DNA of 64,000 bases from Naegleria gruberi. Taxonomy: Eukaryota. Below the pieces are notes generated by a model. The model worked only from the letters and a program-made list of their open reading frames with translations. It made no database searches and had not been told where the DNA came from. A program made the position numbers and the translations under genes. The DNA is taken from the NCBI GenBank assembly GCA_000004985.1, contig GG738864.1; one strand, given 5' to 3'. Positions 14,451 through 62,902 of the stretch are shown here, one piece after another (the stretch's first letter is position 1; each line of letters starts with the position of its first letter).

Positions 14451-15171
14451 TTACATTACGGAACATGTGTCACAAATTCCAAATCTCCTGTTCTTCTTCT
14501 TTTCTGGAAGAAGAGTCTCTGCATTATCATGATCTTCTCCATCAGGTGATTGAGAGGTAAATCTATCAATAACCAATCCAACAAGAGAAGTTTCTAGTGA
14601 TGATGATGAGTCATTCTTAGCACTCAATTCAATATATGGATAATTGAATTGGTTTGCCCATGATTTTGCTGTATTAATGATCTTTTCGCAATGCCTCCTA
14701 TTAAAATCAGTAATTTCATCAGTCTTGTTGGCAACTATCACAAATCTTGGTTGAGTTAGAAATGTTAAATTAGAAATAATGAGAAACTTACGGAAAGCTT
14801 GTTGTGGAAATTGATAAACCGGCTTGAATTAAAAATTCTTCTCTCCACTTATTCAGGGAGTTTGCACTTTGTAAATCCGTTACTGAAAATACCAGGCAAA
14901 CTACATCAATATCACGATAAAAAGCAACTGATAAAGAGGCATACTTCTCCAATCCTGCATTATCCCACAGCTGCAGCTTGTAGGATTCATCCTTATAATC
15001 TATAGCTTGAGAATTTAAACAGTCACTTCCGATTGTTGGTGTATAATTTGTATCAAATTGGTCATATACCAATTTTTCAATAATTGAAGTTTTTCCTGAT
15101 TCTCCATTCCCTAAAAATAATACTCTCAATGTTTTTGGAGTTTCTAAATGAGATCCCACTATCGATTTCAT
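14451..15171 (-). CDS. Rab/Ras-like small GTPase with a CaaX box and a switch-II Gln-to-Leu substitution; 2 exons.
   Basis: - G1: LFLGNGESGKTS.
- G2: YTPTIG.
- G3: WDNAGLE (canonical WDTAGQE).
- Exon 1 is 15171..14792, followed by a 46-nt intron (GTAAGT donor at 14791, acceptor AAG at 14746).
- Exon 2 is 14745..14451. It gives FVIVANKTD (G4 NKxD), ELSAKN (G5) and C-terminal CDTCSVM, a CaaX prenylation box. Confidence 0.8.
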
Positions 15172-39691: not shown

Positions 39692-40657
39692 TTATGAAAT
39701 GCAACATGTTCTACTCTTTACAACTTTTCCTTTTGGCTCACTTTCAGTTTCACTCTTATCTTCTGCAGTGTAATTTATAATTGGAGCTACAATTACCTTA
39801 GTAGCACCTTCCAATTGTCCTTGAGGAAGTTGCACTCCAACCAACATGGCAGCAAGCTTGATAAATGATAAATTTACCATGTCACCAGTTTTAGCAGAAA
39901 CAAAGAAAGAAGATAATTTGTGATATCCTGCCCATTCATCGTGGGTTTCTCTTTTGACTTTTCTTTCGTGACTCAAATCACACTTGTTAGCAAATATACA
40001 AATAACTGGATCTTTAGATTTTTCAGAACTCTTTCTTCCTTCATAACTATCAGAGAAAATATGTTTCACGTATTTTAACCATTCTTCCAAGTTTTTAAAG
40101 CTTTCCAAATTTGTAATATCGTAAGTAAGGATAACAGCATCGGAACCATAAATATAACTAGACAATAATTTTGATCCCAAACTTTGACCCTCTATTATTT
40201 TGTGAGTTAGATCATTAAAATCAAAAACACGTACCAACATCCCAAATTTGAAAGCAAACTTCAATCTTTTTGGTTTTCTTTTGTGATCCCTCTTCAGATG
40301 ACTCGGTATGGGCTGCTTGTTGAGCAGGAATTTCGGCAACTATCGAAACATTCTTGATGAACCAATCAACACCAACAGTCCTTACATAGGATTGCTGGAA
40401 TTCGTCCTCAGTAAATCTTCTAATTGTTGATGTTTTACCAACAGTACCATCTTATCATCAACGGAACGTTACTAAAATATTTAAATTTGATATTACATAC
40501 CACCAACAATAATCACTTTGTATTGATATTTATTATCACCATCGTCATCACTATCATCTTGAACTTCTTCAACTTTTAAATCCTCAAACTCGGCTTCTAC
40601 ATTGCTCTCCAGAATTTTACTGCCCGACATTTGTTTAGTCAAGTTACTTTGGCTCAT
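39692..40657 (-). CDS. Rab-family small GTPase with an acidic N-terminal extension and a C-terminal CC prenylation motif; 3 exons.
   Basis: - Exon 1 is 40657..40501: MSQSNLTKQ...DDSDDDGDNKYQYKVIIVG-.
- A 50-nt intron follows (GTATGT at 40500, acceptor AAG at 40451).
- Exon 2 is 40450..40235: -DGTVGKTSTIRRFTEDEFQQSYVRTVGVDWF...IWDV- (G1, G2).
- A 43-nt intron follows (GTACGT at 40234, acceptor TAG at 40192).
- Exon 3 is 40191..39692: -EGQSLGSKLLSSYIYGSDAVILTYDITN...FANKCDL...SAKTGD...SRTCCIS.
- Switch II reads WDVEGQS, so the catalytic Gln is retained. Confidence 0.8.
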
Positions 40658-43390: not shown

Positions 43391-45391
43391 GTGAACAATG
43401 TTAACGGCAAAATCAAGAAAAAAACCACAACAATGCAAGCAAGTTTATTGACAATTTATTGTCTGTTCTTTTTCATTGCCGTAAAAGTTGTGAATGCCCA
43501 AACGTGCACAGCCTCTTCTTTGATCTCCAATTTTACATCCAGTCAAGCTTTATCCGTACGATGCCAAGTTGGTTATGCTGCTGACACTCATCAATTACAA
43601 TGTAGACCTTACGATGTTGTCTTTAATGAAAATTATGGTAAGCCATGTAATTTCACAAGTGAATGTTTATTGTCATTTGTGTGTAGTGATCTATCAAAGA
43701 TTTGTGTTCCTTCCAAATCAAGAAAACTTGGGGAGCCATGTCTTGCAAGAGAAAGCTGTGTTGCTGACCTCGCTTGTGCCAATGGGATATGTGCACCACT
43801 TGTTGATAGTTATGAAAAGAAATTAGGAGAAAAATGTAGATACTCTGACTATACAACTAACAAGTATTACTACTGTGCAAGCCCAAATAAGTGTGACTAC
43901 ACAACCTATCCTAATTACTATTGTTTTGAGAATGTTTACAATGGTGTTGGAGGTTTTTGTGGTATCAATGAAACCTCTTTCCAATTTGTTCTTTGTAATC
44001 CTGGGTCTCTTTGCAATTCTAAAACTCAAAAGTGTGTCACAACCTATTACAATGCAACACTTGGTGATGCATGCAATACGTTCACAACAGATTCCTTCAT
44101 TGATTGTAAATCTCCATTCTATTGTGATGCTGGAAAATGCTTTGCTTCAGCATTTGTTGGAGCTGGTGAGTCATGCAATTACAAAAATACTACTTCATAT
44201 ATCATGAATTATTGCAATAGTAATTTCTTTTGTGGTCCAGGATCAAAGTGTGCAACATCAATTTCATCTCCGTTGGGTGGTTATTGTGGACTGAATGGTA
44301 CTGATTACTACTCTTGTGCTTCTGGTACTGCTTCTTGTTATATTGATAAGTGTGTTCCAAATGTTAAGTCGAACGTTGGTGGATTGTGTGAAATTGTAAA
44401 CTCTACAGGATCATTTTCTTGTAACTCTTCATTATATTGTTTCAATAATACTTGTATGGAAAAGGGTAATTTGGGTCAAAGTTGTGAACACAATACTAAT
44501 TCATGCAACTTGGGTTTAGTTTGTAGATCTGTGCTTCTTGGGAGTAGTCCAAGAACATGTGAAAATCCTGGCAAGAAATATGATAATTGTACATCAGTAT
44601 CTGATTGCCAAAGAGAATTATTTTGCAAAAGATCTAAGTGTACTAACCTGAATGGAGATCCTGTTGGATCGACATGTACTTTCCACTCTGATTGTGATTC
44701 TGGATTATGCTTGAATAACATCTGCTCATTGAATTACAATGAAACTACATGTTCAAGTGACACAATTTGTTCGAATTATGAGTCCAAGTGTTCGTGTGGT
44801 TCAGGGAAGTCAACATCAAACAGTTCAGGAAAATGTGCTAGTCTGAAGAGATGTAACGCTCTCCAAAGCAATATCAATGTCTGTCTTGGTAACAATGCAA
44901 GAGGTCCTCTTTTGACAACCATCTTTGACAAGTACAGTTCTGTTCACAAGGCATGCGCCAAAGAATTCTCTCAATATTATTCATGCTTAAGAATTGGATT
45001 GACCAATGCAGGAAATGTTCCTGCTTTACCCATTTCTGGTTTAGATATTAATGCAGATTTCGATATTGACCCAGCTCCTACCAAGTTTTACAAGTGTGGT
45101 GCTACCATTAGTTTAGGTACTAATACATGCTCAGGAAATGGTGATTGCGTTGCTGATGAAGTGTGTAAATGCTACTCTGGGTACTTTGGATCATATTGCC
45201 AAAGTAAAGTTATTCCAAAGCCATCAAATCCAATTGTACCAAACAAGTCCCTAGGTAATAATAATGGAGGAGGAAGTAATAGAAATGAAACTAATCCTAC
45301 TTCAGGATTTGCTGCAAATAATTCGAAAGAAAATCTATTGCTGCTTACCTTTAACATGATCATCTTGTTTCTGGGTATCAGTTTCCAATAA
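43391..45391 (+). CDS. Cysteine-rich secreted, probably GPI-anchored, surface protein with EGF-like modules.
   Basis: - Signal peptide after the second Met (MQASLLTIYCLFFFIAVKVVNA; probable start about 43433).
- More than 90 Cys in repeated CxxxxxC...CxxGxC spacing.
- One clear EGF-like module near the C-terminus (CSGNGDCVADEVCKCYSGYFGSYCQ).
- Ser/Asn-rich stalk.
- C-terminal hydrophobic tail (ENLLLLTFNMIILFLGISFQ), consistent with a GPI signal. Confidence 0.6.
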   Translation: MNNVNGKIKKKTTTMQASLLTIYCLFFFIAVKVVNAQTCTASSLISNFTSSQALSVRCQVGYAADTHQLQCRPYDVVFNENYGKPCNFTSECLLSFVCSDLSKICVPSKSRKLGEPCLARESCVADLACANGICAPLVDSYEKKLGEKCRYSDYTTNKYYYCASPNKCDYTTYPNYYCFENVYNGVGGFCGINETSFQFVLCNPGSLCNSKTQKCVTTYYNATLGDACNTFTTDSFIDCKSPFYCDAGKCFASAFVGAGESCNYKNTTSYIMNYCNSNFFCGPGSKCATSISSPLGGYCGLNGTDYYSCASGTASCYIDKCVPNVKSNVGGLCEIVNSTGSFSCNSSLYCFNNTCMEKGNLGQSCEHNTNSCNLGLVCRSVLLGSSPRTCENPGKKYDNCTSVSDCQRELFCKRSKCTNLNGDPVGSTCTFHSDCDSGLCLNNICSLNYNETTCSSDTICSNYESKCSCGSGKSTSNSSGKCASLKRCNALQSNINVCLGNNARGPLLTTIFDKYSSVHKACAKEFSQYYSCLRIGLTNAGNVPALPISGLDINADFDIDPAPTKFYKCGATISLGTNTCSGNGDCVADEVCKCYSGYFGSYCQSKVIPKPSNPIVPNKSLGNNNGGGSNRNETNPTSGFAANNSKENLLLLTFNMIILFLGISFQ

Positions 45392-45776: not shown

Positions 45777-48700
45777 ATGAAAGCATGTTTTTTCGTTCTA
45801 CTCTTGCTCTGCATCTTTCTGTTCAGCCTTGCAAGTCAAATTGACTCACAAAGCCTTCAATATAATATCAGCACGGTTGCAGGTGGTGGTTCTATTGTGG
45901 GTGATGGTTTATTAGCTAATGAGGCTATAACAAGCTACCCGTGTCAATTGGCAATTAGTTCGATTAGTGGAGATTTGTTTTTTGGAGAGGTGGTATCCAA
46001 TAGGATTCGTAAAATTACATCCTCAACTGGTGTGATATCTACTATTGCTGGAACTGGAACTGGTGCATATGGTGGAGATGGCTCCATGGCTACTGCTGCT
46101 CAATTGTTTTATCCTTATGGTGTTGCTCTAAGTTTGGGTGGTGAAATTTATATAGCAGATTCGAATAATAATAGAATTCGTAAAATAGCTACAAATGGTA
46201 TTATTACAACAATAGCAGGAACTGGAACACGTGGATATGATGGAGATGGTGCTTTGGCCACAAGTGCCAAGTTGAATTTTCCTTCATCCATAGCAATTAG
46301 TGCAACCAATGAAATTTATTTCACAGACCAATTGCAATCATAGGATTCGAAAAATAGCAACTAATGGTAATATCTCAACAATTGCAGGAACTGGAACTGG
46401 CAGCTATGGTGGTGACAATGCAATTGCAACAGGTGCACAACTTTATGCACCTGCATGTATTGCAATAGATTCTAATGGTGAATTTTACATTTCCGATTCA
46501 ATGAACCATCGTATTCGAAAAATAGCTACTAATGGTATTATTACAACAATAGCAGGAACTGGAACACATGGATATGATGGAGATGGTGCTTTGGCAATTA
46601 ATGCACAATTATACAGCCCCACGGGGGTTGTTGTCAACTCAAATGGTGATGTTTATATTGCTGACTCAGGTAATAACAGAATTCGAAAAATCTCAAAAGG
46701 ATACATCTCAACAGTAGCAGGAAATGGAATAGCTGGATATAGTGGAGATGGTGGACTATCAACAAGTGCTCAATTAGCCACTCCCCAATCAGTTGCTATT
46801 AATTTAAATGGCGAGATTATAATTGCAGATTCTAATAATAATAGAATTCGTAAAATAGCAACTAATGGAAAAATTTCAACAATTGCTGGAACATCATCAT
46901 TTGGAAATAACATACCAGCTACTTCAGCATCCATCTCACCAGTTGGTGTTCCCACTCTCTACAATAATAAGATAATTTTCGCAGATGAATCTCAAATTAG
47001 ACAAGTAGACCTTGCAACTAATATCATTTCATTAATATCTGGAACTGATTATTTGGCAAGTCCTACAGCAGCTATGTATTTCAACAATGAATTATATATT
47101 CTCTATTCAAAACTCAATTTAGATAAGCCAAAGATTAATATTGTTTCAAGAGTTGTTGGTTCTGAGGGATATAATGGCGATGATATTGCAGCCACTAGTG
47201 CACTGTTGAATTATGCTCGCTCAATTGCTGTCAATTCAAATGGTGATGTTTATATTGCTGACACTTATAATAACAGAATTCGTAAGGTCTCATTTTCAAC
47301 TGGAATCATTTCAACAGTAGCAGGAACTGGAATTGCTGGACAAAATGGTGATGGTAATTTAGCTACAAGTGCACAACTAAATTTTCCTTCAGGAGTTGCT
47401 GTGAGTTCAAATGGTGATATTTATATTGCTGACACTGAAAATCATAGAATTCGTAAGATAGAAACTAATGGATACATTGCAACAGTTGCAGGATCTGGAG
47501 CATCTGGATATAGTGGAGATGGTGGGCTGCTAACTAGTGCTAAATTCCAACAACCTCAAGGAGTGGCTGTGAGTTCAAATGGTGAGATTTATATTGCTGA
47601 CACTGAAAACCATGTGGTTCGTAAAATTTCAACTTCGAATGTACTTTCTACAATTGCTGGAACTGGTTCTTATGGATACAATGGTGACGGTGGATTGGCA
47701 ATTACTGCAAAATTATTCTCTCCCATAGGAGTTGCAATAAGTTCGAGTGGTGAAGTTTTTATTGCTGATAATAACAATCACAGAATACGTAAAATTGCAA
47801 AAGATGGCTATATTTCAACAATTGTTGGCACTGGTTTGAATGGGTATGATGGAGATGGCGATTTGGCTACGAATGCTAAATTGGGTAATCCTCAAGGTGT
47901 GACTCTAAGTCCAACTGGTGAATTGTTTATTGCTGACCAAAACAATCATAGAATTCGTAAAGTAGCAAGTAATGGATATATTTCAACTGTTGCTGGTAAT
48001 GGTAACTTTGGATTTAGTGGAGATGGTGATTTGGCAACAAATGCTGAATTGAATAGTCCTTCAGGAATAGCATTCAGTTCCATTGGTACCATGTATATTG
48101 CTGATCGTTTAAATAGAGTAATTCGAAGAGTAATCTCTGGTAATATATCCACCATTGCTGGAGGTGTTGGTGATGGAGGACCAGCTACTGGAGGATACAT
48201 TCAAGCACAATCATTTGACATTTCTTCAACTGGTGAGATTTATATTGCTGACACTGAAAATCATAGAATTCGTAAAGTTTCAACATTGGGTAAAATTTCA
48301 ACTATTGCAGGAACTGGTGCAATGGGATACAGTGGTGATGGTGGATTGGCAATTACTGCAAAATTATCCTCTCCCGTAGGAGTTGCAGTTAGCTCAACTG
48401 GTGAAGTTTTTATTGCAGACCGAGACAACCATAGAATTCGTAAAGTAACACTTTCTGGTATCATTACAACCATTGCAGGAAATGGAACTAGTGGTTTTAA
48501 TAGTGATGGAATTGAAGCAAAATTTGCTCAATTGAATAGCCCTTCCTCAGTCACAATTTCAGGTGGTGAAATCTATATTGCTGACACAAACAATCATAGA
48601 ATTCGTCAAATATCCAATACTGGTATTATTAAAACAATTGCTGGAAATGGATTTGGTGGATATATTGGTGATGGTGTATTGCCACCTAATGCTCAATTGA

Positions 48701-51700
48701 ATAGTCCTTCAGGAGTTGCAATTTCTTCCACTGCTGAAATTTACATTGCAGAAAATAAGAGAATTAGAAAACTTACAGCGTTCTGTACAGAGAATGGTGT
48801 GTTGATTGATGGAAAGTGTGTATTTCAATGTTTTGGATATACGAATAGTAATTCCTCACTTGTTTGTTCTGGAAAGGGCAACTGTATTGGAAATGATAAG
48901 TGCAACTGTTCATGGCCATACTCTGGTTCCAAATGTGATGAGTTTTATTGCAATGGAGTGTTGAATACTAACAAAACATTTGTGTGTTCATCTCATGGTA
49001 CTTGCTCATCTCCAAACAATTGTTCTTGTGTCGATGGTTTTTATGGAAATATTTGTGAATTCTTTTATTGTAATGGCGTACAACAAAATAGTTTAAATGT
49101 ATGCTCAGGTCATGGACTCTGCTCTTCTTTGAATAATTGCACCTGTCAACAAGATTATTCAGGCATTGATTGTGAAAATTTCCATTGTTATGGACTGTCT
49201 AGAGTTGATCCTAAAGTTTGCTCATCTCATGGAATTTGCTCTTCCATAAATAATTGCTCATGTGCAACTGGATATGGTGGATCTAAATGCAACGAATATT
49301 CATGTTATGATGTGAATTCTACGAATAAGACAGTTTGTTCTGGAAGAGGAACTTGTTCTTCTCCCAATAATTGTACATGCGATCCAGGATACTATGGATC
49401 AAATTGTGAATTGTACGATTGTTATGGAATATCCAAAAACAATTCGAATGTCTGCTCAGGACATGGTACTTGCATTGCTATCAATAATTGTACATGTACA
49501 GATGGTTACTATGATACCAAATGTGATTCATTCAATTGTGCAGGAGAGAAATTCACTGGTCAATCACTGTGTCAGAATAATGGTACTTGTTCTAATCCTG
49601 GTAATTGTGATTGTCCTTATCAGTTTGGAGGTGCCAGATGTGAATATTACAAATGTTATACCTATACTTCTAATGAAGCAAAAGTATGTGGCGGGCATGG
49701 TACTTGTTTAAATTACAATAATTGTTCTTGCTCTGGCAAGTGGATTGGTGACGATTGTACACAGACTACTTGTTATGGTAAAAGTTCAAACTCTAGCTCA
49801 GTATGTGGTGGAAGAGGTAATTGCACAGACTTTAATCAATGCACATGTTATGATGGGTATAGAGGTGTCGAATGTCAACACATTGTCTGTTTTGATAAGA
49901 TTGAAAACGATACATCAGTTTGTTCAGGAAATGGCAAATGTCTAACATCAAACAATTGTACATGTCAAATTGGTTATGTTGGAAATGAATGTCAATATCA
50001 CGAAATTTATTTGAATACCTCATCTGCCATAATATTTTCATTCCAGGAAAGTTTAATGAAATTGTTGCCAAATGAGAGTGGAATATTTTCATGTTCTGAA
50101 ATTTTCACTGATTCTGAAATTGCCAAATTTGGAGAAAGTACTTCGATTTCTTGCCAATGGAGAAGAAATTCACTCCTAATTCATCTTGGATTTGATTATT
50201 CTATTCAACAATACTCAATTATTCAATCAAAATTCAACTTTTCAATGAGAGTTTCTAGCTTGTCCTCAGTTTCTAATAGTGATGCTCCATCTCCAACTTG
50301 TTCTTTCGGATATGTATTGAATGAAGCTTCTCCATTATTGGATGTAGTGATACGTTTGAATTGTGATGAGAATTTGCATGGTTTTAAAAAGAGTAGAACC
50401 AGTTGGATGTGTAGTCAATGTACAGGAGCAATTTCATCAATTTTAAGTAACTATTCGAATAGATCCAGTGTTTATATTCCAATTTCGTATATGAACGCTT
50501 TGAATCCTGTTCAAGGATACAAGACAATTAATTTGCAAGCTTCTTATTCATCATCTGTTTCTTCCACCATTTCCACTAGTAAGGAAGTAAAGGTTCAAAC
50601 CTATACGAAATCTTTACCTCCAAGTTATTACTGGCTAAGTGATAATTATGATGGAAAAACCTATTCATGTGTTGGCCATAATTGTATCATTGAAACTTCA
50701 TTGAATAGTTTAAACTCCTCAATTTCTTATTCATTCTCTGGTTTATTTAGTTTATTGAACACTGATTTATATTCGAAACAAATGGTGAGATTGATAAATG
50801 AATTTTCAGGAGGAATTGTCGACAGTGAATTCAGTTCTAACATGCAAGTTTTTGGAGTTCAACTCAAGACCTATGTTTACTTACCGTATAGTATTGATTC
50901 ATTCAAATATTCCACATTTACAAATTTGGATTATGTCATGACAGGCGTCAATAGAACCTACTCAATCAATGCAGATAACTTAATAACTATAGGTTTGACT
51001 ATTGATGATCCATACATTTCAAAATACACATTAAGTGATTACATGGTATTCTCCTGGAAATGTTTCCAAGTTTCTCCTTCTAATAGGTCTTTAATTTTGA
51101 CCGATAATTTGTGTTCCTCAATAACTGACAATGCCAAATCAAATATTGAATTGGATATCAGCAAAATGTCTTTGAAAGAAGGTTCATATTTAATATCTGC
51201 TTCAATTTCATCGACTAAATACTTTGTTACAACAGTTTACAATTATGAAGGATGGATTGACTTGTTGGGAATTTCACAGGATTCTCCTCAGATAACTACA
51301 GATTATGTACCTGCTATTACTCCTTCTCATCACAATATTTATTTAAGAAATGTGGTGAAATCTTCAACAAGTGTTTCATTCTATTGGAAACTCAAAAGTG
51401 GTGAATTGAATATTGACGAAACTGTTGAAGATTTCCTTCAAAGAAATACAGTTTCTAAATCTATCTTGGGTAACAATGTTGAAATTATCTTGAATATTGA
51501 CAATGATTATCTCATCCAAGGAGAATATTATGAATTTGAATTGTCAACCAAGAATTCTAACGGTGTTTCAAATATTTCCATTTCAACAAGAATGGATTTC
51601 ACTCCTCGATTGTCATGTAATGTGGAAAATGTGAAGAATGAAGCTAACTTGACCAGTTTTGAATCTTTAATATCTATTACATGTGTAAAATTGCCATACG

Positions 51701-54134
51701 AAAGTATATCAAGTTTCGTCATGGAATTCCATTCACAAAACGAAAGATTAGGAGTCATTTCGAATACTCCAAAGAAGGCTCTTATTACCAGAGTTCCTTA
51801 TGCAATGGATGGAACAGTTACCTTAATCGTGAAACTTCAAAATTTATATGGATCTATTGGAATTTATAGAACTACTATCAGCGCTCAATTACCAAATGCT
51901 TTGACAAGTGACAACTCTATTTCTTCAAGATTTACATATGTATCCAAACAATTCCAAATTCTCAAAAATGCTCAACCAGCCAAAATTGAAGTTTCCAACG
52001 AAGTCAACACCTTACTTTCTTTATTAATCCAAAACGAAACTCTTTCTAAAATTTCAGAGAAAATTTCAAAGGAATTGAAATCTGATCAATTAGTTTCCTT
52101 TAATACAATGCTCAAAGAAATGCTAACCCTCACCAAGAGTCTACAAGACATTACTTACAAAGTTGATGAAAGATTAATTCAATTAATTCTGCCAATTGTC
52201 AACAAAATTTCCACAATTCTCAAATTAACTCTTGACACATCGTCATTATCCAATTTTGCTTCAGAATTGGAAATTTGGTTGGACTGGATTTATTCAGGAA
52301 TGAATAAGGCACTCAATTACTATCCAACTTTCATTTACAAGGAATTATTAGATGAATTTCATTTACAAGAAATTGTTTCGTTACAAAATATACTTTCGAA
52401 TATATACCAAAATAATTTGGATCAACAATTTAAATACCACAAGTACAATTTACAATATATCAAGCTTACAGGAAGTAATAGTGATAATTCAAGCTTTGTG
52501 GAAGATGTTGAGTTTTCTGATTTATTGAATGACAAGTCAATTTCACTTTCTGTTTCTAATTTTAAAGTTGATATGAAATTACCAAGTGATTTTACCAATC
52601 AAATTTCATTGAAATCAAAATCAAAACTATACTATTCCATTACCTCATTCAGTGATAATCAAACTGGTTCAAAACTTTTACAAAACAAACCAATAATTGA
52701 CCTATCTCTGTACGATACATCTTACAATGCAATATCAGTTGACAACATTAATCCACCAATAGTTTTCAAGTTCCAAGGATTGTTTTCCACTAACAAGACT
52801 AATATTAACACAACTTGTGTCTATTACAATACCATACTAGGAAAATGGTCAACCAATGGATTGCAAACAATTACAAGCGTTACCAAACGAACTGAAGAGT
52901 ACATGTACTTTGATATGGAATGTCATTCAAGTCACTTGTCTGTATTCTCAGTTCAAGAGGTTGATTACAACACCCCAATTATACCAGCCATTTCATCTAA
53001 CAAAGCTTCAAACCAACAAGAAAATCTCACCATTATTTTAGCTACTGTTTTACCTGTTAGCTTTTTAATCCTTATTTTCATTATTATCCTCTTTGTGTTT
53101 ATCATTTTACTATTCAGATTTAAGCAAAAGAAAGCAAATGAATTTGCCATTGCAACCAAAACCAATCTTGAAATGGAAGGTTTCTCAAGCAGTGATTTCC
53201 CATCCTCAGAAGGAAGCATGTTTATTCATCCTCTTATGAGTATTTCCTCAAATGGAACAACTAGTGAAGCATTCAATCCATTGTCAAGATATTCTGATTT
53301 AGTAAGAATTGGCCAAGGAGCTTTTGGAAGTGTTTTTAAAGCATTTGATAGTAAGACGTCAACTGTTAAGGCGATTAAGGTAATTAAATATTCATCCATG
53401 GAGGAGTTGAATAATTTCATGAAAGAAGGAACGCAGTTGATGAATGTGACACATCCTTATATTTTGAGAGTGAATGATTTCTTTGTGAGTAAGGATCAAT
53501 TGCTATGTATAGATATGGATTTTTATGAATTAGGAGATTTGGTCAAATTGACCAATGTTGAATTTGATTGCTCGGAGAAGTTAATCAAACAAATTATTTA
53601 TCAAATGTGTCAAGCTTTGGATTATATTCACTGCAATATGAAAATCATTCACAGAGATATCAAACCATCTAATGTTTTTGTAAAGAGTATGGAAAATGAC
53701 GATATTCACATTATTGTTGCCGATTTCGGATTGGCTAAATCAAATATTGGTGGATCAATGAATAATTCCTATGCAGGTACACCTATATTTATGGTAAGTT
53801 TTCAAATATTTCTTTCGATTCGAATAATTTTTAGTCTCCTGAACTTGGCTTGGGTGGAAAATATTATTACAATACTGATATTTACAGTTTAGGTGTTACT
53901 GTATATCAAATAATGACCAAAGACACCTCTACTTCAATCAGTCAATTGTATCTTGGAAAGGAACAAAATGAAGTTACAACGCTATTGAGAAAAAAGCTTA
54001 AAGATGGTGGACATTATTCTGAACGAGTTGTGGAATTGGTTTTACAAATGTTAACAAAGGATAATTTAACTAGGCCACAAGCTCAAGATATTTTGGAAAA
54101 TTCCTATTTTGATGATTTGAGAATGAAACGATAA
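45777..54134 (+). CDS. Giant receptor-like Ser/Thr kinase: signal peptide, ~25 NHL repeats, ~20 EGF-like modules, ~1,300-aa unknown ectodomain, TM and protein kinase. Interrupted by an apparent +1 frameshift near 46328 and by one 41-nt intron in the kinase domain.
   Basis: - Track ORFs 45777..46343 and 46300..53892 encode the same ~55-aa NHL unit (...NHRIRKIATNGIITTIAGTGT.GY.GDGG.AT.AQL..P.GVA....GEIYIAD..) in two frames.
- Deleting one C from GACC at about 46328 restores ...EIYFTDNCNHRIRKIATNG..., matching the repeat consensus.
- EGF-like units: CSG.G.C...N.C.C..GY.G..C.
- TM segment: LTIILATVLPVSFLILIFIIILFVFIILLF.
- Kinase motifs: GQGAFGSVF, VKAIKV, HRDIKPSNVFV, DFGLAKS, GTPIFM.
- Donor GTAAGT at 53794, acceptor TAG at 53834.
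- The last exon runs from 53835 and encodes SPELGLGGKYYYNTDIYSLGVTVYQIMT...RP.A.DIL.., through to 54134. Confidence 0.7.
45990..48790. repeat. Tandem array of about 165-nt coding repeats (NHL units) with the recurring core aatcatagaattcgtaaaat.
   Basis: The nucleotide motif (a/g)a(t/c)(c/a)a(t/c)agaat(t/a)cg(t/a)aaaat(a/t) recurs about 20 times at 150-170 nt spacing across the 5' third of the giant gene. Confidence 0.7.
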
Positions 54135-54252: not shown

Positions 54253-55925
54253 TTATTCTTCATCTGATTCGAAAGCCACATTCTTCTTTTTAGGGAATGT
54301 TTGCAGAGCTCTAGATTTTCCTACCGGGCTACTAACCAGTGGATTTGAGATTAATCTACTAAAACTTCCACTATTTGTAGAAAGGGACAGTTGTGCAAGG
54401 GATTGTTTCAAGGTTTCACAAATCTCTTCCCATTCAGGTCTTGCATTCATGTCTGCTGACCAGCATTTAGTAATGAGCTTGATTATCAAATTATTTACAA
54501 CGTTATACTCAATTCTAAAGTGCTCACCAAAGAACATTTCCCTGAGCTCTGTTTGGGTTGGTATCTTTGGACGCATTTCTTCATGAATCACTTTGTGTGT
54601 AATATCATAAATGTTGAGTCCTGGATACAACTCCTTTTCAAAAATTAACTCATATATACAAATGCCAAAACTGTAGATATCCGCTTTGAATGAATAATGA
54701 CCTTCTGCCAAAATCTCTGGAGCAGTAATTTCAACTGTACCACATTTAGTGTGCTTCTTTTGTTTGTTGTTAAATAGCCTAGCAATACCAAAATCTGAAA
54801 TCTTTAGAGTCCAGTCATTAGTTACAAGGCAGTTAGATACTTTCACATCAGAGTGAATAATATTTTTTGATTTGAGATAGTTCAGTCCGTTAGCAGCGTC
54901 CAATAGCAATTTACATTTCTTTTTCAGGGTGAGTCCAGATTTGAAAGAGCTCTTTTGTAATCTTCCTTGTAAGGTCTCATCATCGATTGAAAACCTGGAA
55001 ATGTGTTGTGTATTGAGCTTTATCAGGTTGGTGTCATCTAGCTCCGTTGTCGGTGGGTGATTAATAGGACTCATGGTCATGCCTGCACCAGAATAGGATG
55101 TTTTCAATAGTTTGTCTAAACTTCCTCTCGAGCAATATTCTGTGACAATATAAAAGAATGGAGGTTTGATAGATGCAGCAATGAACTGCACAATATTTGG
55201 ATGTCTGATTGTACTCATTATTTGAGTCTCCTTCATGTACTCTTTCAGTGGATCCTCCAACAAGTCACAAATTAAGCATTGCTTGACTGCAACAAGAACA
55301 TTGAGATATCGTGCCTTATAAACAACTCCACTACTACCAACACCAATTTGTTCCATCAATTCCAAATCATCAGATGAAATACTCATACTTCTCAATTGCG
55401 GAGAGACTCGAATGATCGCATCATTCAATTCCTTTGACAAATCATTGTATGGTAACTCTTCTGGATTTTCAACAGGTTTCAACTTGTTGAAATGTGCATT
55501 CAAATCTTCAGCAATATGAGAGCTAGTATTTAAATCCGTTAAACCACTATCATTCAAATCAATTACTATCGAATTTGAATTATCAACCCTTGATCCCACA
55601 TTGGTGATTTAATTTGCATACTCTTAAAATCCATCTCATCATTCATTCCATAATATTCACCACTATCCCTCTTTTTCATGAGTGGTTTCGTTTTCTCCGA
55701 ATTTTTACAACAATAATTACAAGTTAGTGTATTTACAAGTGTTCTACATAATCCTCTCCTTCCCAATCGACTCTTTATCATACATAGCAAACAACCACTC
55801 ATCATGATATTGACCAATAACATGGCAGAACTTAGCACTATCAATGACCACTGAATCACAGGAGAATCATTCAGTGGTAAAAGCAAGATATTGTTCTCAA
55901 CACTCATCGGAAAATAATAACACAA
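54253..55925 (-). CDS. Membrane-anchored protein kinase (TKL-like) with an HSD (not HRD) catalytic loop; 2 exons.
   Basis: - Exon 1 is 55925 (or the MSVENN Met at 55904) to 55622. It encodes a short N-terminal segment, a TM helix (VIQWSLIVLSSAMLLVNIMMSGCLLCMI) and a Cys-rich juxtamembrane region, ending ...GMNDEMDFK-.
- The donor is GTATGC at 55621, the intron is 33 nt and the acceptor is AAG at 55589.
- Exon 2 is 55588..54253, in frame with track ORF 54253..55599.
- Kinase motifs: GVGSSGVVYKA, VAVKQ, HSDVKVSNCLV (catalytic Asp retained), DFGIARL, APEIL, DIYSFG. Confidence 0.65.
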
Positions 55926-56686: not shown

Positions 56687-58729
56687 ATGAGTGGTGCTGA
56701 TTTTGTGTTGTCTGCCACTACTACCAATAATAACAATGGTGATGATACTATTCATCAAAAGATACAATTATTTACTCAAGCTATTGGTGAGGTAGACCAA
56801 GAAGGAAAGTCAACAACTAATGCAAGTAGTGCTCGTAGGTGGAGTTTTTCATCAGATTCTTCATCCTCCTCTTCTCATTCGTCAAATTCATCATCGGGTG
56901 CAGATGATACTGCTGATGATGAAGATGAAGAAATAACAATGGTTTGGAATAATGCAACTGACAGTAATGTTGATAATAATATTGAAACTAGTGTTACAAC
57001 TCCTTTGAATAATAAGATTGTTATTATTACGAATGAGGAGGACATTGGAGAGGAAGAAAATACATTATCAGACTCATCAGATATTATTTCGAATACTTAT
57101 AATTCAATAGAACAGAAGGAAGAAGATAAACCAGTCGTACCTTCTTATGAAAAGTTTAGTTTGAAAGAACAGTTGAAACTCAAGCTTCCTTCTTCAATAC
57201 TTCATCTCACTTCTCCTAATAACACAACTAGTAATAATAACAGTTCAACACAATTTACAACAACAACACTAACAGACAATAGTTCAAAATCAAGCTCTCC
57301 ACAAACACCAACCGAGAAACCAACAACAAATGGTGATGAATCACTGCAAATCATGGAATTAAATATTGAAAGTCCAAATGAAGAGTTAGACGATACATCG
57401 AGGAGATTTACATTCAATTCTACCGATATTATCAAGGCAGTTTTTGAAGGAAAACACGATGAGGAAGTTGGAAAACTGTTACAAACAGATGTTTCTGATT
57501 ATTTAACACAACTAGTCAAGAGGAAAAATCAAATTACCAATCCAGTGGTGATGCCGAGTCCCTCTCCTATCAAGAGGATGAACTCTACCTTCCTCACTCC
57601 TTCTACACCTTTAGGGATGACAAAGTCTGGCTCATCTAGTGATATATCCAGTCCTTGTTCATCACCAAATTTGGACAAATTGAATACAATTATTGAAAAG
57701 AAAAAACTTTCCAGGTCTAATACTACTGTTCACAATTATACACTCTCCCCAGAATTAAAGCAGAGAAGAAAAATTACAGCAATTGGATCCGGAATGATTC
57801 CAAATGATTTTAATATGGTACAATCTCCATTGAGTGATTATGGAATTGATTTTTCACAATCTGATAGCAAAATAACTGCTTCCAAAAGGTCGATGAGCAT
57901 TGGGCCAAATCTTCAATCCTACTATTCTTCATCTACAAATGCAATGAAGAGTGATCCTAACTCTGTTTCAACAGACGATATTTACAGAGTTACAATTCTA
58001 GGATCTGTTGGTGTTGGAAAATCATCATTAATTAACAAATTTATTAAGGGAACATTCTCCAATGAGTATAATTCTACAGTTTTCGAGGATATTTATCACA
58101 AGCCACTCATGTTTTTGAAATATCAGGAAATTAAGCTTTTGGAAATATTGGACACAAGTGCCCTACACATCAAACATTACAAAAATAAGGCAAATCAAGA
58201 GGATGAATCACCATCCATGGAGATACCTTCAAGTTTTCTTAGTGATTATATTATTAACTGTGATGCATACATACTAGTGTACAGTGTGGATGACATTCAA
58301 AGTTATAAATATTGTAAGGATATTTACAAATCAATTGTCGGTCAGAAAAAGATGGCTGGTCTTAAAAGAACTAGATCAAACTTGAGAGCTAGTGGAAACA
58401 GTCTCATAGCAACGCCAAGAACAGTTGCTCGATCTGATGTTCCTCTTGTCCTTGTTGGAAACAAGTCAGATGTTGGAATTGAGGAAAAATTTATTGATTC
58501 AAAAGTAGTTTGGGAAGATGTACATACAGAGCTAGCATTTGGTTCAAATTGTTCTTTTGTGGAAACTAGCGCCAAGAAGGAAGATGTTGATTGTATTTTC
58601 CAAGCACTTGTAAATAGAATTTGTTTGAGGGAAGAACCAAAGACTTCTTCCAAAATACAAATATCCTCTTCACTTCCAACCAAAAAGACAGGTCAACACG
58701 ATTCAAATAAAAAGTGTGTCATTCTGTAG
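56687..58729 (+). CDS. Ras-like small GTPase domain (C-terminal, CaaX box CVIL) fused to a ~430-aa Ser/Thr/Asn-rich N-terminal extension. Switch II lacks Gly and Gln (DTSALH).
   Basis: - G1: ILGSVGVGKSS.
- G2: YNSTVFED.
- G3: ILDTSALH (canonical DTAGQE).
- A ~30-aa insert follows.
- G4: LVGNKSD.
- G5: ETSAKK.
- C-terminal KKCVIL is a geranylgeranyl-type CaaX.
- The N-terminal extension is low-complexity (SSSSSHSSNSSSGADDTADDEDEE; NNTTSNNNSSTQFTTTT). Confidence 0.7.
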   Translation: MSGADFVLSATTTNNNNGDDTIHQKIQLFTQAIGEVDQEGKSTTNASSARRWSFSSDSSSSSSHSSNSSSGADDTADDEDEEITMVWNNATDSNVDNNIETSVTTPLNNKIVIITNEEDIGEEENTLSDSSDIISNTYNSIEQKEEDKPVVPSYEKFSLKEQLKLKLPSSILHLTSPNNTTSNNNSSTQFTTTTLTDNSSKSSSPQTPTEKPTTNGDESLQIMELNIESPNEELDDTSRRFTFNSTDIIKAVFEGKHDEEVGKLLQTDVSDYLTQLVKRKNQITNPVVMPSPSPIKRMNSTFLTPSTPLGMTKSGSSSDISSPCSSPNLDKLNTIIEKKKLSRSNTTVHNYTLSPELKQRRKITAIGSGMIPNDFNMVQSPLSDYGIDFSQSDSKITASKRSMSIGPNLQSYYSSSTNAMKSDPNSVSTDDIYRVTILGSVGVGKSSLINKFIKGTFSNEYNSTVFEDIYHKPLMFLKYQEIKLLEILDTSALHIKHYKNKANQEDESPSMEIPSSFLSDYIINCDAYILVYSVDDIQSYKYCKDIYKSIVGQKKMAGLKRTRSNLRASGNSLIATPRTVARSDVPLVLVGNKSDVGIEEKFIDSKVVWEDVHTELAFGSNCSFVETSAKKEDVDCIFQALVNRICLREEPKTSSKIQISSSLPTKKTGQHDSNKKCVIL

Positions 58730-59014
58730 AGTCAAATAGCAACAATCAAATTATTATTATTATTTGATTTCTTATTTATTGATTTAATCCATGTCATTCA
58801 AAATGCCCAAATTCTTCATTACAAACTCCTATTCGTTATTTAATATCCAGTTTTGACTCATTCCATTAATACACTTTGCCCCTTCCTCACCAATCATATT
58901 ATTGGAAATATTGAGAATGGTCAACTGTTTCATACCACTAATTGATTTAGCTCCTGCTTCACCAACAAAGTTGTATTTGACAACAAGACTTTTTAAATTA
59001 GACATTCCACTAAT

Positions 59015-60157
59015 TTAGGCTGCCCCCTCCGGTCCAATATTATTGCTGGAAATATCTAGTATTACCAAGTTGGGCAATCTACTTATTGCTCTAGCACCTT
59101 CCACACCAAAATGATTATAAGAAATATCTAGTTCAGTCAATTGTGTCATTTCACCAATGTAATTAGCTCCTGTTGCATTCATCTTTGTTGCACTAACATT
59201 CAAAATCTTTAAATTCTTCAATTTCTTAATGAATCTAGCACCCTCAGATTCTATTATATTTGATTGAACATCGAGGAGAGTGAGATTTCTTAGTTGAGAT
59301 ATAAATTTAATTCCTCCCAATTCAACAATATTGAAGGTAGCTCTCAATTCTATTAAATTCTTCATTTCTCCCAAATATTTAGCTCCTTCTGGATTAATTT
59401 CATTCCGACTCACATCTAAACTTGTCAAATTCACTAATCCACTAGAAAGAAGTCTCATGCCCTCTGGACCGTTATAATATCCACTAATCTTTAAGTATTT
59501 TAAATTATTCATCCTTGCAATAGCTTCAAACCCTTCCAAATCAATCATATTCCAGCAAATAACAAGTGAAGTCAACTGTTTCATCTTGCTAATTGAAATA
59601 GCTCCGTTAGGTCCTATGTTATTCAAAGGTATTTGCAATGTTTTCAAATTCTTCATTTTACTAATATATTTGGCTCCTTTACGCCCAACAGAATTTTTCC
59701 CAATATCCAAATAGGTCAATTCTTTCAGTTTGCTGATTAGTTTTGCCTCCTTTTCTTTTAATCCATTTTCATTAATCGAAAGACAAGTTAAATTTTTCAT
59801 TAATGACAAAACTGTTAAAAATTGTTTGTCTCTAATAAGATTCGCATAATTGACCTTAACATTTCGAATAGAGTTAAGCACTTGACTATTTCTCAAGTGT
59901 TGAACTCTTTCCTCTTGAATAATTTGATGAAAATCCAAACAAAGTTTAGAATATTGGTTGATCAAGAAGTAGGTCCATTGTTTGGAAATTAAAGGACAAT
60001 ATTTTAAAATTTCCCAACCTGTTAGAAAGCTCATAATTTCATGTATAATATCATCAGGAAGGAAATTATCTGAAAAGTTTCTAATAGAAACCTCGTGTGG
60101 TGTCGTTAATTTGGAGTTTCGCATTTTTTTTATTGTAAACATTTCAATATGGAACAC
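59015..60157 (-). CDS. F-box-like plus RNI-type LRR protein.
   Basis: 380 aa. N-terminal F-box-like segment: FSDNFLPDDIIHEIMSFLTGWEILKYCPLISKQW. It is followed by about 11 LRRs of 24-28 residues (LDISSNNIGPEGA; LDVSRNEINPEGAKYLGEMKNL...). This is the same family as 26760 and 60430. Confidence 0.75.
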   Translation of the reverse strand: MFHIEMFTIKKMRNSKLTTPHEVSIRNFSDNFLPDDIIHEIMSFLTGWEILKYCPLISKQWTYFLINQYSKLCLDFHQIIQEERVQHLRNSQVLNSIRNVKVNYANLIRDKQFLTVLSLMKNLTCLSINENGLKEKEAKLISKLKELTYLDIGKNSVGRKGAKYISKMKNLKTLQIPLNNIGPNGAISISKMKQLTSLVICWNMIDLEGFEAIARMNNLKYLKISGYYNGPEGMRLLSSGLVNLTSLDVSRNEINPEGAKYLGEMKNLIELRATFNIVELGGIKFISQLRNLTLLDVQSNIIESEGARFIKKLKNLKILNVSATKMNATGANYIGEMTQLTELDISYNHFGVEGARAISRLPNLVILDISSNNIGPEGAA

Positions 60158-60268
60158 TCTTGGAACTTTTTCGAATAGTATGTCAAGTTGTATCCACTGA
60201 TTAATTGTAAACTATTCCACAACCTCTTAAATTTCCCTTAATTATGAAACAAAACTTTACAAAAAAAA

Positions 60269-61314
60269 ATGAGTCAAAATGATCAAGGTTCACCACTATC
60301 ATCAAATTTTGTATTTTCGGAACAGCGCTGTGATGATGAAGAAAATTCCTTCCCTTTGGAAACAGCGATATTAAAAATGAACATCATGATGATAACGGTA
60401 TTAATTTTAGAGATCAATTTCCTGATGAAATGTGTTATGAAGTATTGTCCTTCCTTTCGCATAGATTTATTTTGAGGACGTGTACGCTGATTTCGTCTCA
60501 GTGGTATAATGTTATTAAGGAACGTTGTTTGTTTTCGACTATGTTCAATTCACCCGTTACTAAAGAAAGAGCTCAATTGATGATTAATAGCCCCTTTCTG
60601 GAACGAATAATCTCTGTAAGTTGTACACAAGCAGCAACTACATGTAAACAATATTGGAAAGCCATTGGAATGATGAAACGATTGACTTATATTAACACAG
60701 TTAGTAACCAAATAACCTCGAATGTACTGTACATTATTAAGAATATTACAAAATTGAAATCGCTCCAGACATTATATATTGGATTTAATCCATTAGGAGA
60801 CGAGGGAGTTAAATTATTGGGTGGAATACCCAGTTTAACAAGTCTTAGTATTTGTGCAACCTCCTCAACTTTTGAATCAATGGGAGCTATTAGTCAATTG
60901 AAGAATCTCAATTATCTTGATGTTGCTTATTGTGACATTGGCGTGGAAGGGTCTAAAATAATTAGTGGAATGACCCATTTAACTGAACTTGATATTTCTC
61001 AGTCAAATATTGGGTCGGACGGAGTTAAATATATTTCTCAAATGTCAAATTTGAAAAATTTATTTATACCTGCAAATGAAATATTGGACGAAGGGGCTTT
61101 ATTTATTAGTAGTGGATTGAAAAATCTCACATTTCTCGAAATCAGTTGTAATGCACTGACGGATATAGGAATCTCAAGTATAGCTAAAATGAATCAATTG
61201 GAAGGTTTAGCCATCAACAAGAATAACATTGGTGAGGAAGGTAGAAAAGCTCTCACTCAAATGAAGGCATCCAGAACTAAATTTTATTTAGAATGTGATG
61301 ATTTGGTCCAATGA
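60269..61314 (+). CDS. F-box-like plus RNI-type LRR protein with a frame discontinuity between its N-terminal leader (frame of 60269) and the body (frame of 60430).
   Basis: The body ORF starts at 60430 (MCYEVLSFLSHRFILRTCTLISSQW...) with LRRs to 61314. The same frame stays open upstream to 60340 (...NGINFRDQFPDEMCYEVLSFL, completing the F-box-like LPDE..L motif) but without an ATG. An ATG-initiated leader (MSQNDQGSPLSSNFVFSEQRCDDEE...) sits in the adjacent frame from 60269. I found no usable GT..AG intron. A 1-nt indel in the GATGATGAAGAAAATT run at about 60335-60345 would fuse the two frames. Confidence 0.55.
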
Positions 61315-61396
61315 AGGTTTGAGTCCTCGCAACCAAAGACATTTAGATTATTAAAGGTGTCATCAAGTTTTAGTCAAACTGTTGCTGTAGCATGAT

Positions 61397-62902
61397 TTAT
61401 TTTTCTTTTGAAAATTTGAATCTATTTCCAAGGGCTAGTTGGAACAATGAGGAAGATAGAGAAATACCCTTCTTCAAACCAATTGCTTGATTCGAAGATC
61501 CTCCAACAGTTACAGACAAATCAGAGGCACTGTGTACATCTGGAATGTTCACTTTTTGTTTAGCATTCAGTTCTGGAGCTGAATTGCCACATACTCTTGC
61601 CTTAATGTTTGTCTTCCTAGAAAATATTGACCTCTTATTATTGCTGGCGTCGGATGTTGTGGTTTTAGATCTCTTTCTCGTTAAAAAGGCCTTATGTTCT
61701 GAGGAGGCCAGAGATTCTTCCTCTCCTTCTGAACAATCTGTGATATCACTTTCTGTATCACTACTCGTTTCATTGTTTCTATAGTAAAATAATGAGTCTG
61801 TGCTGCTGCATAGAGACTCACTTCGTGGTGTGGATGTTGAGGTTGGAGTTCCAGATTTGACTTTTCTTGGTGTTGTTACGAAACCAAAGTCAGTTCCTTC
61901 TTGTTGCAAGTTATAGATGCAATTCCAGGAATCAGTGAGCATGAGAACCTTTTTGAATACCTTATCAACGTGGTATCGTTGTTTGGCACTAACTTCAATA
62001 TAGGAGGAGAGATTGTGTTTCAATTTCATTTCTCTCATTGCTTGTCTGACTTGTTTCTTTGAAACAACCCTTGAACACATCATATCAATCTTATTGGCAA
62101 TTATTATTATTGGGAAATGTTCAATTTTGGATAATTGAAACTTTTTCTCTTGGACTTCTGCAACAAGTTGCTTCATTTTCTCAAAACTCGATTCGTTGGT
62201 AACGTCAAATACAAACACAAAAACTAAACTTTCTCTGATATAAGAGTCTTTCAAGTCTGCGTATTGATCTGAACCAGAAGTGTCTGTTATGTATAATTCG
62301 AAAGTTTCCAACTCTGTCTTTCTCACAATTTTGCTGTAAGATTCTTGAATGGTTGGATCATGGAAATTAGGGAAGGATTTTTGAACATATTGGGAAATGA
62401 TTGAGGTCTTGCCACATGCTTCATCTCCAACTAGGCACATTCTGACCTTTCTATTGTAATGTATCGAATAGTTATTCGATACATAATCGTCTTCTTCGTC
62501 CATTGTAGTGGACACTGTATCAAGAAAATCGCTTTGCATGGTGGCAACATCAAGTGATTGACTATGCAATCTATCAAAATGTTGTTTACATGGTGTTCTT
62601 GGAGTGATATCAGATTCACTCTTTGTAGCAGATGAAAGATTTGAAACAGTTCTCTTCAAAACTTGATCTGTTATAACATTAGACCTTTGAGTCAATCCAT
62701 CAGAGTTGGTAATAAAGCATGATCTCAATGAATATGGAGAACAATTACAAAAGATTGAATTATCATCTACAAAGAGTGTGTCCATCCCACTGCAATAACT
62801 TATCGAGCCACTCAATCCACACAAATCACTACTCGATGAATAAGTGGTCGTCATCCCAAAATTGACACAATTACTACTACTTGTCTTTTTATAAGCTGAC
62901 AT
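61397..62902 (-). CDS. Ras-like GTPase domain embedded in a 501-aa Ser/Thr-rich protein. Switch II lacks Ala, Gln and Glu (DTSGSD). No CaaX box.
   Basis: - G1: LVGDEACGKTS.
- G2: FHDPTIQESY (Ras-type PTIEDSY).
- G3: ITDTSGSDQY.
- G4: IANKID.
- G5: EVSAKQ.
- About 140-aa N-terminal and ~170-aa C-terminal Ser/Thr-rich extensions. The C-terminus is ...KFSKEK, with no Cys. Confidence 0.7.
   Translation of the reverse strand: MSAYKKTSSSNCVNFGMTTTYSSSSDLCGLSGSISYCSGMDTLFVDDNSIFCNCSPYSLRSCFITNSDGLTQRSNVITDQVLKRTVSNLSSATKSESDITPRTPCKQHFDRLHSQSLDVATMQSDFLDTVSTTMDEEDDYVSNNYSIHYNRKVRMCLVGDEACGKTSIISQYVQKSFPNFHDPTIQESYSKIVRKTELETFELYITDTSGSDQYADLKDSYIRESLVFVFVFDVTNESSFEKMKQLVAEVQEKKFQLSKIEHFPIIIIANKIDMMCSRVVSKKQVRQAMREMKLKHNLSSYIEVSAKQRYHVDKVFKKVLMLTDSWNCIYNLQQEGTDFGFVTTPRKVKSGTPTSTSTPRSESLCSSTDSLFYYRNNETSSDTESDITDCSEGEEESLASSEHKAFLTRKRSKTTTSDASNNKRSIFSRKTNIKARVCGNSAPELNAKQKVNIPDVHSASDLSVTVGGSSNQAIGLKKGISLSSSLFQLALGNRFKFSKEK

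Follow-up and report, generated by a model that had tools for sequence, protein, structure and literature searches.

Small GTPases that naturally lack Gly12 or Gln61 form a well-known class, and the present analysis concerns two proteins with such substitutions, GT1 and GT2, encoded in a stretch of 64,000 nucleotides of the Naegleria gruberi genome (assembly GCA_000004985.1, contig GG738864.1; hereafter the window), where, between positions 56,687 and 62,902, they flank a pair of leucine-rich repeat (LRR) genes, LRR1 and LRR2. Among the described proteins of unusual catalytic make-up, the RGK group (Rad, Gem/Kir and Rem), NKIRAS and DiRas3 have a non-canonical G3/switch II, carry N- and C-terminal extensions and possess no lipid anchor, as is also the case for GT2; their activity is believed to be governed by phosphorylation and by binding partners, and not by cycling between GTP and GDP. 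The G3 motif of RGK proteins is of the DxWE type without Gly60, from which GT2 differs by keeping DTxG, and, apart from sharing the general Ras fold, GT1 and GT2 showed no sequence affinity to RGK, NKIRAS or DiRas3; Di-Ras2 is one of many weak matches of GT1. The switch II of Rnd reads DTSGS, the same as in GT2. Rnd1-3 and RhoH, in which Gly12 is lost or switch II altered, are GTPase-deficient and constitutively active, and are controlled by degradation or phosphorylation (PMC13236570). GT1 and GT2 resemble these proteins in combining natural substitutions at the positions of Gly12 and Gln61 with intact nucleotide-binding motifs, and constitutive GTP loading with control by expression, phosphorylation and degradation (PMC13236570) is also what we would predict for the Naegleria pair; GT1 further has, like Rnd, a CaaX box. 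Unlike Rnd and RhoH, which belong to the Rho branch, GT1 and GT2 fall within the Ras/Rap branch, show no Rho insert in alignments and carry extensions of 150–430 residues, and the resemblance is, judged by sequence, convergent rather than homologous. The closest solved relative of GT1 is Rap1, which itself naturally lacks Gln61 (Thr61); unlike Rap1, GT1 has Leu61, Ala60, two large insertions and an N-terminal extension of 430 residues.

The Ras family of Naegleria is huge and divergent. About 80 Ras genes have been counted in N. gruberi, many of them 'too divergent' for phylogeny; three separate Naegleria genes are true Rap1 paralogues, and the remaining Ras genes seem to be derived from true Ras (Herman et al. 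2021, PMC8296547). The same study describes Naegleria proteins in which an F-box is fused to a GTPase domain, and suggests that GTPase signalling is coupled to ubiquitination by Skp1–cullin–F-box (SCF) complexes in this organism. The block considered here brings together the same two protein modules in the same organism; unlike in the fusions, the F-box-like module resides on separate LRR genes, and Pfam detects no F-box in GT1 or GT2. In the LRR genes themselves the repeats build a 24-residue solenoid of the ribonuclease inhibitor (RI)/GALA type, as in eukaryotic FBXL adaptors and bacterial GALA/RipG effectors; unlike in established F-box/LRR adaptors, the F-box scores of LRR1 and LRR2 lie below Pfam gathering thresholds. 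Both GTPase genes are already annotated and catalogued, and we found no discussion of their specific substitutions in the literature.

Our interpretation, held with moderate confidence, is that the block consists of four independent nuclear genes, that its two GTPases are always on in the manner of Rnd and RhoH and controlled through their abundance, and that their adjacency to the LRR genes is not functional. The data demonstrate no new mechanism, nor do they show that the genes work together as a cluster. The order and coordinates of the four genes given in the first-pass annotation of this DNA, GT1 (+), LRR1 (-), LRR2 (+) and GT2 (-), are borne out by the open reading frames (ORFs) and by Pfam.

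Pfam places both GTPases in the Ras family (PF00071, cut-off 21.6 bits), GT1 at 71.6 bits (7e-20) and GT2 at 125.6 bits (1.8e-36). The residues for nucleotide binding are kept: both proteins retain Lys16, Ser/Thr17, Thr35 (in STV in GT1 and PTI in GT2), Asp57, the G4 motif (NKSD and NKID, respectively) and SAK. Neither conforms to a canonical hydrolysing Ras, GT1 having Val12, Ala60 and Leu61, and GT2 Glu12 and Ser61 with Gly60 retained. The first-pass annotation had recognised the preserved nucleotide-binding motifs and the loss of Gln61 in both proteins, and had overlooked the P-loop substitutions of Gly12, present in both, and the replacement of Gly60 by Ala in GT1. In hidden Markov model (HMM) alignments to solved Ras-family structures, ILDTSA of GT1 stands opposite ILDTAG of Rap1b, and GDEACGKT of GT2 opposite GDGGVGKS; DTSGSDQY of GT2 is matched by DTAGQEEY of M-Ras. 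The P-loop of GT1, GSVGVGKS, is the same as that of the G12V mutant of Rap1b, which is its top match among solved structures. Across 45 aligned sequences, the columns of Ala59 and Gly60 are conserved to 90% or more, and GT1 departs from them with Ser and Ala. The possibility, raised at the outset, that the unusual switch II is a mis-splice and that a canonical DTAGQE is present in an alternative exon is ruled out: the alignments are continuous across switch II, and a scan of all six frames of the whole window yields no DTAGQE-type segment.

The G domain of GT1 is modelled by AlphaFold as a Ras fold (mean predicted local distance difference test score, pLDDT, 74.9), with target-normalised template modelling (TM) scores of 0.80–0.87 against KRas and Rap1b and with low confidence at both insertions, the one in switch II and the one before strand 5. 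Given Ala60 and the switch II insertion, GT1 may not undergo canonical switch II closure. Long Ser/Thr-rich extensions had been noted in both proteins, as had a CaaX box in one of them, and both features are evident: the extensions are also rich in Asn (Ser, Thr and Asn together make up 37% of residues 1–425 of GT1), and GT1 ends in CVIL, while the C-terminus of GT2 has no CaaX box. No accessory domain accompanies the G domains. Pfam gives Ras alone in GT1 and GT2, the extensions are without match, and the matches to Roc, Arf and MMR_HSR1 overlap the same G domain; a COR domain (as in Roco), a DnaJ domain (RJL), and EF-hands or a second GTPase domain (Miro) were sought by Pfam beside the two G domains and not found, which removes the basis for the earlier comparison with scaffolds of the Roco, RJL or Miro kind.

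The evidence for maintenance of the substituted state comes from GT2. An exhaustive HMMER search with its G domain recovered two orthologues, the metagenomic protein P0124 (61% identity) and KAL9649581.1 of Willaertia magna (51% identity), and each of the three sequences has Glu12, Gly60 and Ser61. Between GT2 and an ENA metagenome allele of 98.9% identity there are 11 synonymous differences and 5 nonsynonymous ones (a ratio of nonsynonymous to synonymous polymorphism, pN/pS, of 0.12), none of the latter within the G domain, and all indels are in frame; the non-coding DNA upstream of the gene diverges from the close allele by 3.7%. GT2 is, on these observations, a constrained gene whose substituted catalytic state is maintained under purifying selection. 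The C-terminal motif LKKxxSxSSxLFxL, conserved among the orthologues, might serve in phosphorylation, docking or membrane binding. A helix that follows the G domain is conserved as well, and GT2 and its orthologues have in common an L(Q/M)LxDx(W/Y)NC segment just past the G domain. GT1 (XP_002677907.1) is an uninterrupted ORF of 680 codons in DNA of 34% GC, and Table S8 of Herman et al. 2021 (PMC8296547, Additional file 10) pairs it one-to-one with Ras19 of N. fowleri as its orthologue.

How might such proteins operate? From established Ras biochemistry and by analogy with the Rnd and RhoH precedent, GT1 and GT2 are expected to bind GTP, to hydrolyse it very slowly and to resist RasGAPs of the arginine-finger type. 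As signals they would be constitutively loaded with GTP, in the way of Rnd1-3, RhoH or the RGK proteins, and their output would depend on expression level, turnover, phosphorylation of the long Ser/Thr-rich tails and localisation. Under the prenylation rule a terminal Leu in the CaaX box, as in CVIL, predicts geranylgeranylation, and GT1 would be anchored in the membrane by its polybasic stretch together with the geranylgeranylated CVIL, GT2 instead by its conserved C-terminal motif. GT2 retains a Ras-like effector loop, HDPTIQESY, so that it could still engage effectors of the RBD or RA type. Were this account correct, the two proteins would be protist additions to the small GTPases without self-inactivation, with the state of GT2 conserved across genera, and an always-on design in the style of Rnd and RhoH would have arisen in the Ras branch outside animals too.

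The first-pass annotation had viewed the GTPases of the window as a single lineage-specific expansion, possibly a clade defined by a switch II of the DTSxxx or DNAGLE form. The comparisons do not support this. GT1 and GT2 are 19% identical (33 bits), less than what either shares with canonical Rap or M-Ras, at 50 and 86 bits. The two have their best matches among M-Ras, R-Ras2, Rap and KRas; GT2 is nearest to its own orthologues and after them to generic Ras, and the third GTPase, the bearer of DNAGLE, is Rab7-like. For these reasons the losses of Gln61 are best regarded as independent, which fits the roughly 80-member, often unplaceable Ras family of N. gruberi. On sequence comparison GT1 and GT2 are unrelated divergent members of this very large family. 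An origin of the block by inverted duplication of a unit of convergent GTPase and LRR genes was considered and is ruled out by the 19% identity of GT1 and GT2 and by the greater similarity of LRR1 to a third paralogue, LRR3, than to LRR2; nor are there long DNA inverted repeats, the sole pair being of 47 nt with 70% complementarity and located within LRR-coding sequence. The coordinates of the motifs and genes are collected in Table 1.

Table 1. Positions in the window of the genes of the block, their motifs and other genes mentioned in the text
Feature	Position	Strand	Remarks
GT1 gene	56687..58729	+	680 aa, single exon; XP_002677907.1 (N. gruberi NEG-M), annotated 'ras family small GTPase'
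GT1 N-terminal extension	residues 1 to ~425	+	Ser/Thr/Asn-rich
GT1 G domain	~residues 430-650	+	Ras/Rap-like; followed by polybasic tail and CaaX box
GT1 P-loop GSVGVGKS	58001..58024	+	Val in place of Gly12
GT1 G3/switch II DTSALH	58151..58168	+	Ala for Gly60, Leu for Gln61
GT1 switch II insertion	58169..58237	+	~23 residues, directly after DTSALH
GT1 second insertion	58340..58438	+	residues 552-584, between helix 3 and strand 5
GT1 G4 NKSD	58460..58471	+	
GT1 G5 SAK	58568..58576	+	
GT1 CaaX box CVIL	58715..58726	+	preceded by basic residues
GT2 gene	61397..62902	-	501 aa, single exon; XP_002678001.1, annotated 'ras family small GTPase'
GT2 G domain	~residues 150-325	-	between N-terminal and C-terminal extensions, both Ser/Thr/Asn-rich
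GT2 P-loop GDEACGKT	62405..62428	-	Glu for Gly12, Ala for Gly13
GT2 effector loop HDPTIQESY	62336..62362	-	Ras-like
GT2 G3/switch II DTSGSD	62267..62284	-	Gly60 retained, Ser for Gln61
GT2 G4 NKID	62084..62095	-	
GT2 G5 SAK	61982..61990	-	
GT2 C-terminal motif LKKxxSxSSxLFxL	61424..61480	-	common to GT2 and its orthologues (P0124, P0126)
LRR1	59015..60157	-	first ATG at 60142; F-box-like N-terminus 59963..60061, then 11 LRRs of 24 residues
LRR2	60269/60430..61314	+	paralogue of LRR1; F-box-like segment 60418..60516
LRR3	26760..28028	-	third F-box-like/LRR paralogue
Third GTPase	14451..15171	-	XP_002677992.1, Rab7-like; two exons, 46-nt intron 14742..14787
Fourth Ras-superfamily gene	39692..40657	-	several exons
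Receptor kinase-like ORF	46300..53892	+	2530 residues
Smaller EGF-repeat ORFs	293..1360 and 43391..45391		
HisKA + HATPase_c ORF	8296..11097	-	
Response-regulator receiver ORF	7632..8291	-	
Protein kinase gene	54253..55599	-	PK_Tyr_Ser-Thr, 3e-51

Several points weigh against the reading of two always-on GTPases among independent genes. Loss of Gln61 is no proof that hydrolysis is lost, for GTPase-activating proteins (GAPs) that contribute a catalytic Asn in trans inactivate both Rap (Thr61) and Rheb. Conservation of the substituted catalytic state is shown for GT2; for GT1 there is the motif state alone. A word-index protein search with the G domain of GT1 returned no orthologue, only generic Ras, Rap and Rheb proteins at 27–32% identity, and a metagenome scan with GT1 gave a generic P-loop match and nothing else. 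The same word-index search also missed known long-tailed orthologues, including members of its own GT2-orthogroup query profile, so that the absence of a GT1 orthologue from it is weak evidence; queried with full-length GT2, it returned a near-identical allele as the sole match, the low-complexity tails swamping its candidate step. GT2 (XP_002678001.1) stands in the N. gruberi list only, without a one-to-one partner in N. fowleri (PMC8296547, Table S8). As to the arrangement, a run of GTPase, LRR, LRR and GTPase genes has a chance of about 0.003 under uniform random gene order given the gene content of the window, and about 1e-4 to 1e-3 such runs would be expected genome-wide under an assumed size of the LRR family. 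Chance alone therefore accounts poorly for the arrangement, and our interpretation has to assume regional clustering of fast-evolving families as the cause of the adjacency. Even so, we think it most probable that the adjacency follows from the richness of this region in signalling genes and does not mark a functional module.

Another possibility for the nature of GT1 and GT2 is that they are ordinary switches served by an unconventional GAP of the RapGAP/TSC2 type, whose 'Asn thumb' supplies the catalytic residue in trans, both proteins still cycling between their states. Rap, naturally without Gln61, is regulated in just this way, and Rap1GAP still acts on Rap G12V; Rap1a and Rap1b are the best solved relatives of GT1, Rap is among the best of GT2, and Thr35 and all nucleotide-binding motifs are kept in both proteins. 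We nevertheless judge this explanation unlikely, although it is the main rival, since GT1 also lacks Gly60 and bears the insertion of some 23 residues in switch II, since position 12 of GT2 is occupied by a bulky acidic Glu that is invariant in its orthologues, and since both proteins fall outside the group of the three bona fide Rap1 paralogues of Naegleria (PMC8296547).

The LRR genes require closer description before their relation to the GTPases can be weighed. LRR1 and LRR2 are 32% identical over their full length, including an N-terminal LPxxhhxEhhSFL...C.LIS.QW segment, and LRR1 has a closer relative in LRR3, which lies at a distance of 31 kb and is 41% identical to it. LRR3 has no GTPase neighbour, and its 24-residue repeats are very regular (IGDEGAKSISEMKQLTSL). 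Pfam reports LRR_6, LRR_8 and LRR_4 in both LRR1 and LRR2, with LRR_6 at 102 and 67.6 bits, and AlphaFold builds from LRR1 a 24-residue solenoid of 11 strand-helix units at a pLDDT of about 90; the best matches are the LRR of RipG4 (phmmer 4e-27, Foldseek 1.8e-15), LegL1, ribonuclease inhibitor and FBXL17. Of the designation F-box/LRR, initially applied to both genes, the LRR part is confirmed, whereas the F-box remains below the Pfam threshold: the profile F-box-like (PF12937, cut-off 24.3 bits) reaches 23.8 bits in LRR2 (E = 3.7e-5) and 18.5–19.3 bits in LRR1 (E = 1.8e-3 at 18.5 bits), and no match to it is given by Pfam in LRR3. A profile of the three paralogue N-termini (LPxxhhxxIhsFL...W) has a single match below 0.01 in the PDB, the F-box of FBXO42 (E = 0.0013), and the N-terminus of LRR1 is modelled with a pLDDT below 50, which is uninformative on the F-box. 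'F-box-like' seems a fair description of these genes and 'F-box' an unproven one, and a role of LRR1 and LRR2 as SCF substrate adaptors is a plausible prediction.

The integrity of both adjoining LRR genes is in some doubt. The in-frame TAA of LRR1 (59015..59017, minus strand) falls within an LRR unit, and 61 in-frame codons encoding about 2.5 well-formed repeats lie between it and the next stop (58829..58831, minus strand); the TAA may have arisen by nonsense mutation not long ago, may reflect an error of sequencing, or may be a site of read-through. If LRR1 is read to this next stop, its 3' end comes within 100 bp of the stop codon of GT1. In LRR2 the F-box-like segment begins upstream of the first in-frame ATG (60430), and further upstream the frame is closed by three stop codons (60331..60339); the segment can be joined to the ATG at 60269 only via an intron of 83–140 nt that ends at 60412 and has its donor at 60330, 60288 or 60273. 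A close allele (L001, a contig of ENA ERZ929261, 97.6–99% identical) carries a 230-bp deletion relative to positions 61140..61369 of the window, which takes out the final ~58 codons of LRR2 together with most of the spacer, while GT2 stays whole; the deletion is either genuine structural variation or a product of faulty assembly. The gene models of LRR1, of LRR2 with any of these donors, and of LRR3 have no exact match in the protein collection, from which it follows that the public gene models differ from those used here. With its multiple copies, GALA/RI-type repeats and F-box-like N-terminus, the LRR family looks like one evolving by birth and death.

Could the LRR proteins nevertheless serve the GTPases beside them? 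A functional link had been proposed for the block, and in its full form it would make the F-box-like/LRR proteins SCF adaptors that ubiquitinate the neighbouring always-on GTPases, the four genes being a co-evolving unit. Ubiquitin-dependent degradation is the usual check on atypical GTPases that are constitutively active (PMC13236570), and, of the extra domains found fused to GTPase domains in Naegleria, none is more frequent than the F-box, which has been read as GTPase-dependent ubiquitination (PMC8296547, Additional file 4). LRR proteins are known binders of Ras, the top PDB matches of GT2 include the M-Ras chains of SHOC2-MRAS-PP1C entries, and the order of the four genes is, as said, improbable under uniform random placement. 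Against such a module, each GTPase gene is convergent with its LRR neighbour, so that the members of a pair have no promoter in common, and a head-to-head spacer, of about 110–125 bp, exists only between LRR1 and LRR2. The closer kinship of LRR1 to the distant LRR3, its in-frame stop, the want of an in-frame ATG for the F-box-like segment of LRR2, the 3' truncation of LRR2 in the close allele, the sub-threshold F-box assignment and the lack of any trace of an inverted duplication all argue in the same direction. Comparison with other genomes agrees: neither an LRR gene nor a GT1-like gene occurs within 10 kb on either side of the Willaertia GT2 orthologue, where nothing besides the orthologue itself matches the N. 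gruberi window, and neither occurs on the shorter metagenomic contig of P0124, on which the downstream gene is unrelated and on the same strand. One Ras locus of N. lovaniensis is, anecdotally, also without an LRR neighbour. Adjacency is the only positive evidence for the proposed link, and a module of this kind seems to us quite improbable. The block does offer a concrete case in which to test the published proposal of a coupling between GTPase signalling and SCF ubiquitination in Naegleria.

A composite account would treat GT2 as the representative of a heterolobosean (Naegleria and Willaertia) always-on family of the Ras branch, with Glu12 and Ser61 fixed before the two genera split, and would have the levels of GT1 and GT2 set by the adjacent F-box-like/LRR SCF adaptors. 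Taken as a whole, we find it very doubtful. Were it true, the GT2 family would be a convergent counterpart of animal Rnd and RhoH, and the adjacent LRR adaptors a stand-alone version of the Naegleria F-box-GTPase fusions. Finally, that GT1 and GT2 are decaying or neutrally evolving copies in a birth-and-death family is scarcely credible in spite of the pseudogenes and very divergent paralogues documented in Naegleria GTPase families (PMC8296547), the identity of only 27–32% between GT1 and any protein found and the damaged look of the adjoining LRR genes, because GT2 has its low pN/pS, exclusively in-frame indels and a Willaertia orthologue with an intact G domain, and GT1 its long uninterrupted frame in AT-rich DNA, intact nucleotide-binding motifs and published N. 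fowleri orthologue, all of which marks both as real genes.

The always-on GTPases, as we interpret them, lie in a window that is dense in signalling genes (34% GC overall) and holds three LRR paralogues and four Ras-superfamily genes. About 0.36 small GTPase genes would be expected in 64 kb (182 GTPases among 15,727 genes), against the four present, which belong to different subfamilies. In the third of them, WDNAGLE, with Leu at the position of the catalytic Gln, lies opposite WDTAGLE of Rab7a Q67L, its best PDB match, and the C-terminus is CSVM, so the substitution and the CaaX-type end recorded for this protein at first sight are both upheld. All its nucleotide-binding motifs are retained, and the published table pairs it one-to-one with RabX17 of N. 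fowleri as its orthologue (PMC8296547, Table S8). The fourth gene, whose last exon matches Pfam Ras at 2.5e-15, encodes a C-terminus CCIS and contains IEGQS, so that its catalytic Gln appears to be present.

Among the other genes, a protein kinase gene lies immediately upstream of GT1 in divergent orientation. The ORF of 2530 residues comprises 11 NHL repeats, teneurin-like EGF repeats and a C-terminal protein kinase domain, and looks like a receptor kinase; EGF repeats occur in two smaller ORFs as well. The ORF with HisKA and HATPase_c domains is situated directly upstream of the response-regulator receiver ORF, and the pair (7632..11097, minus strand) is probably a single hybrid histidine kinase gene.

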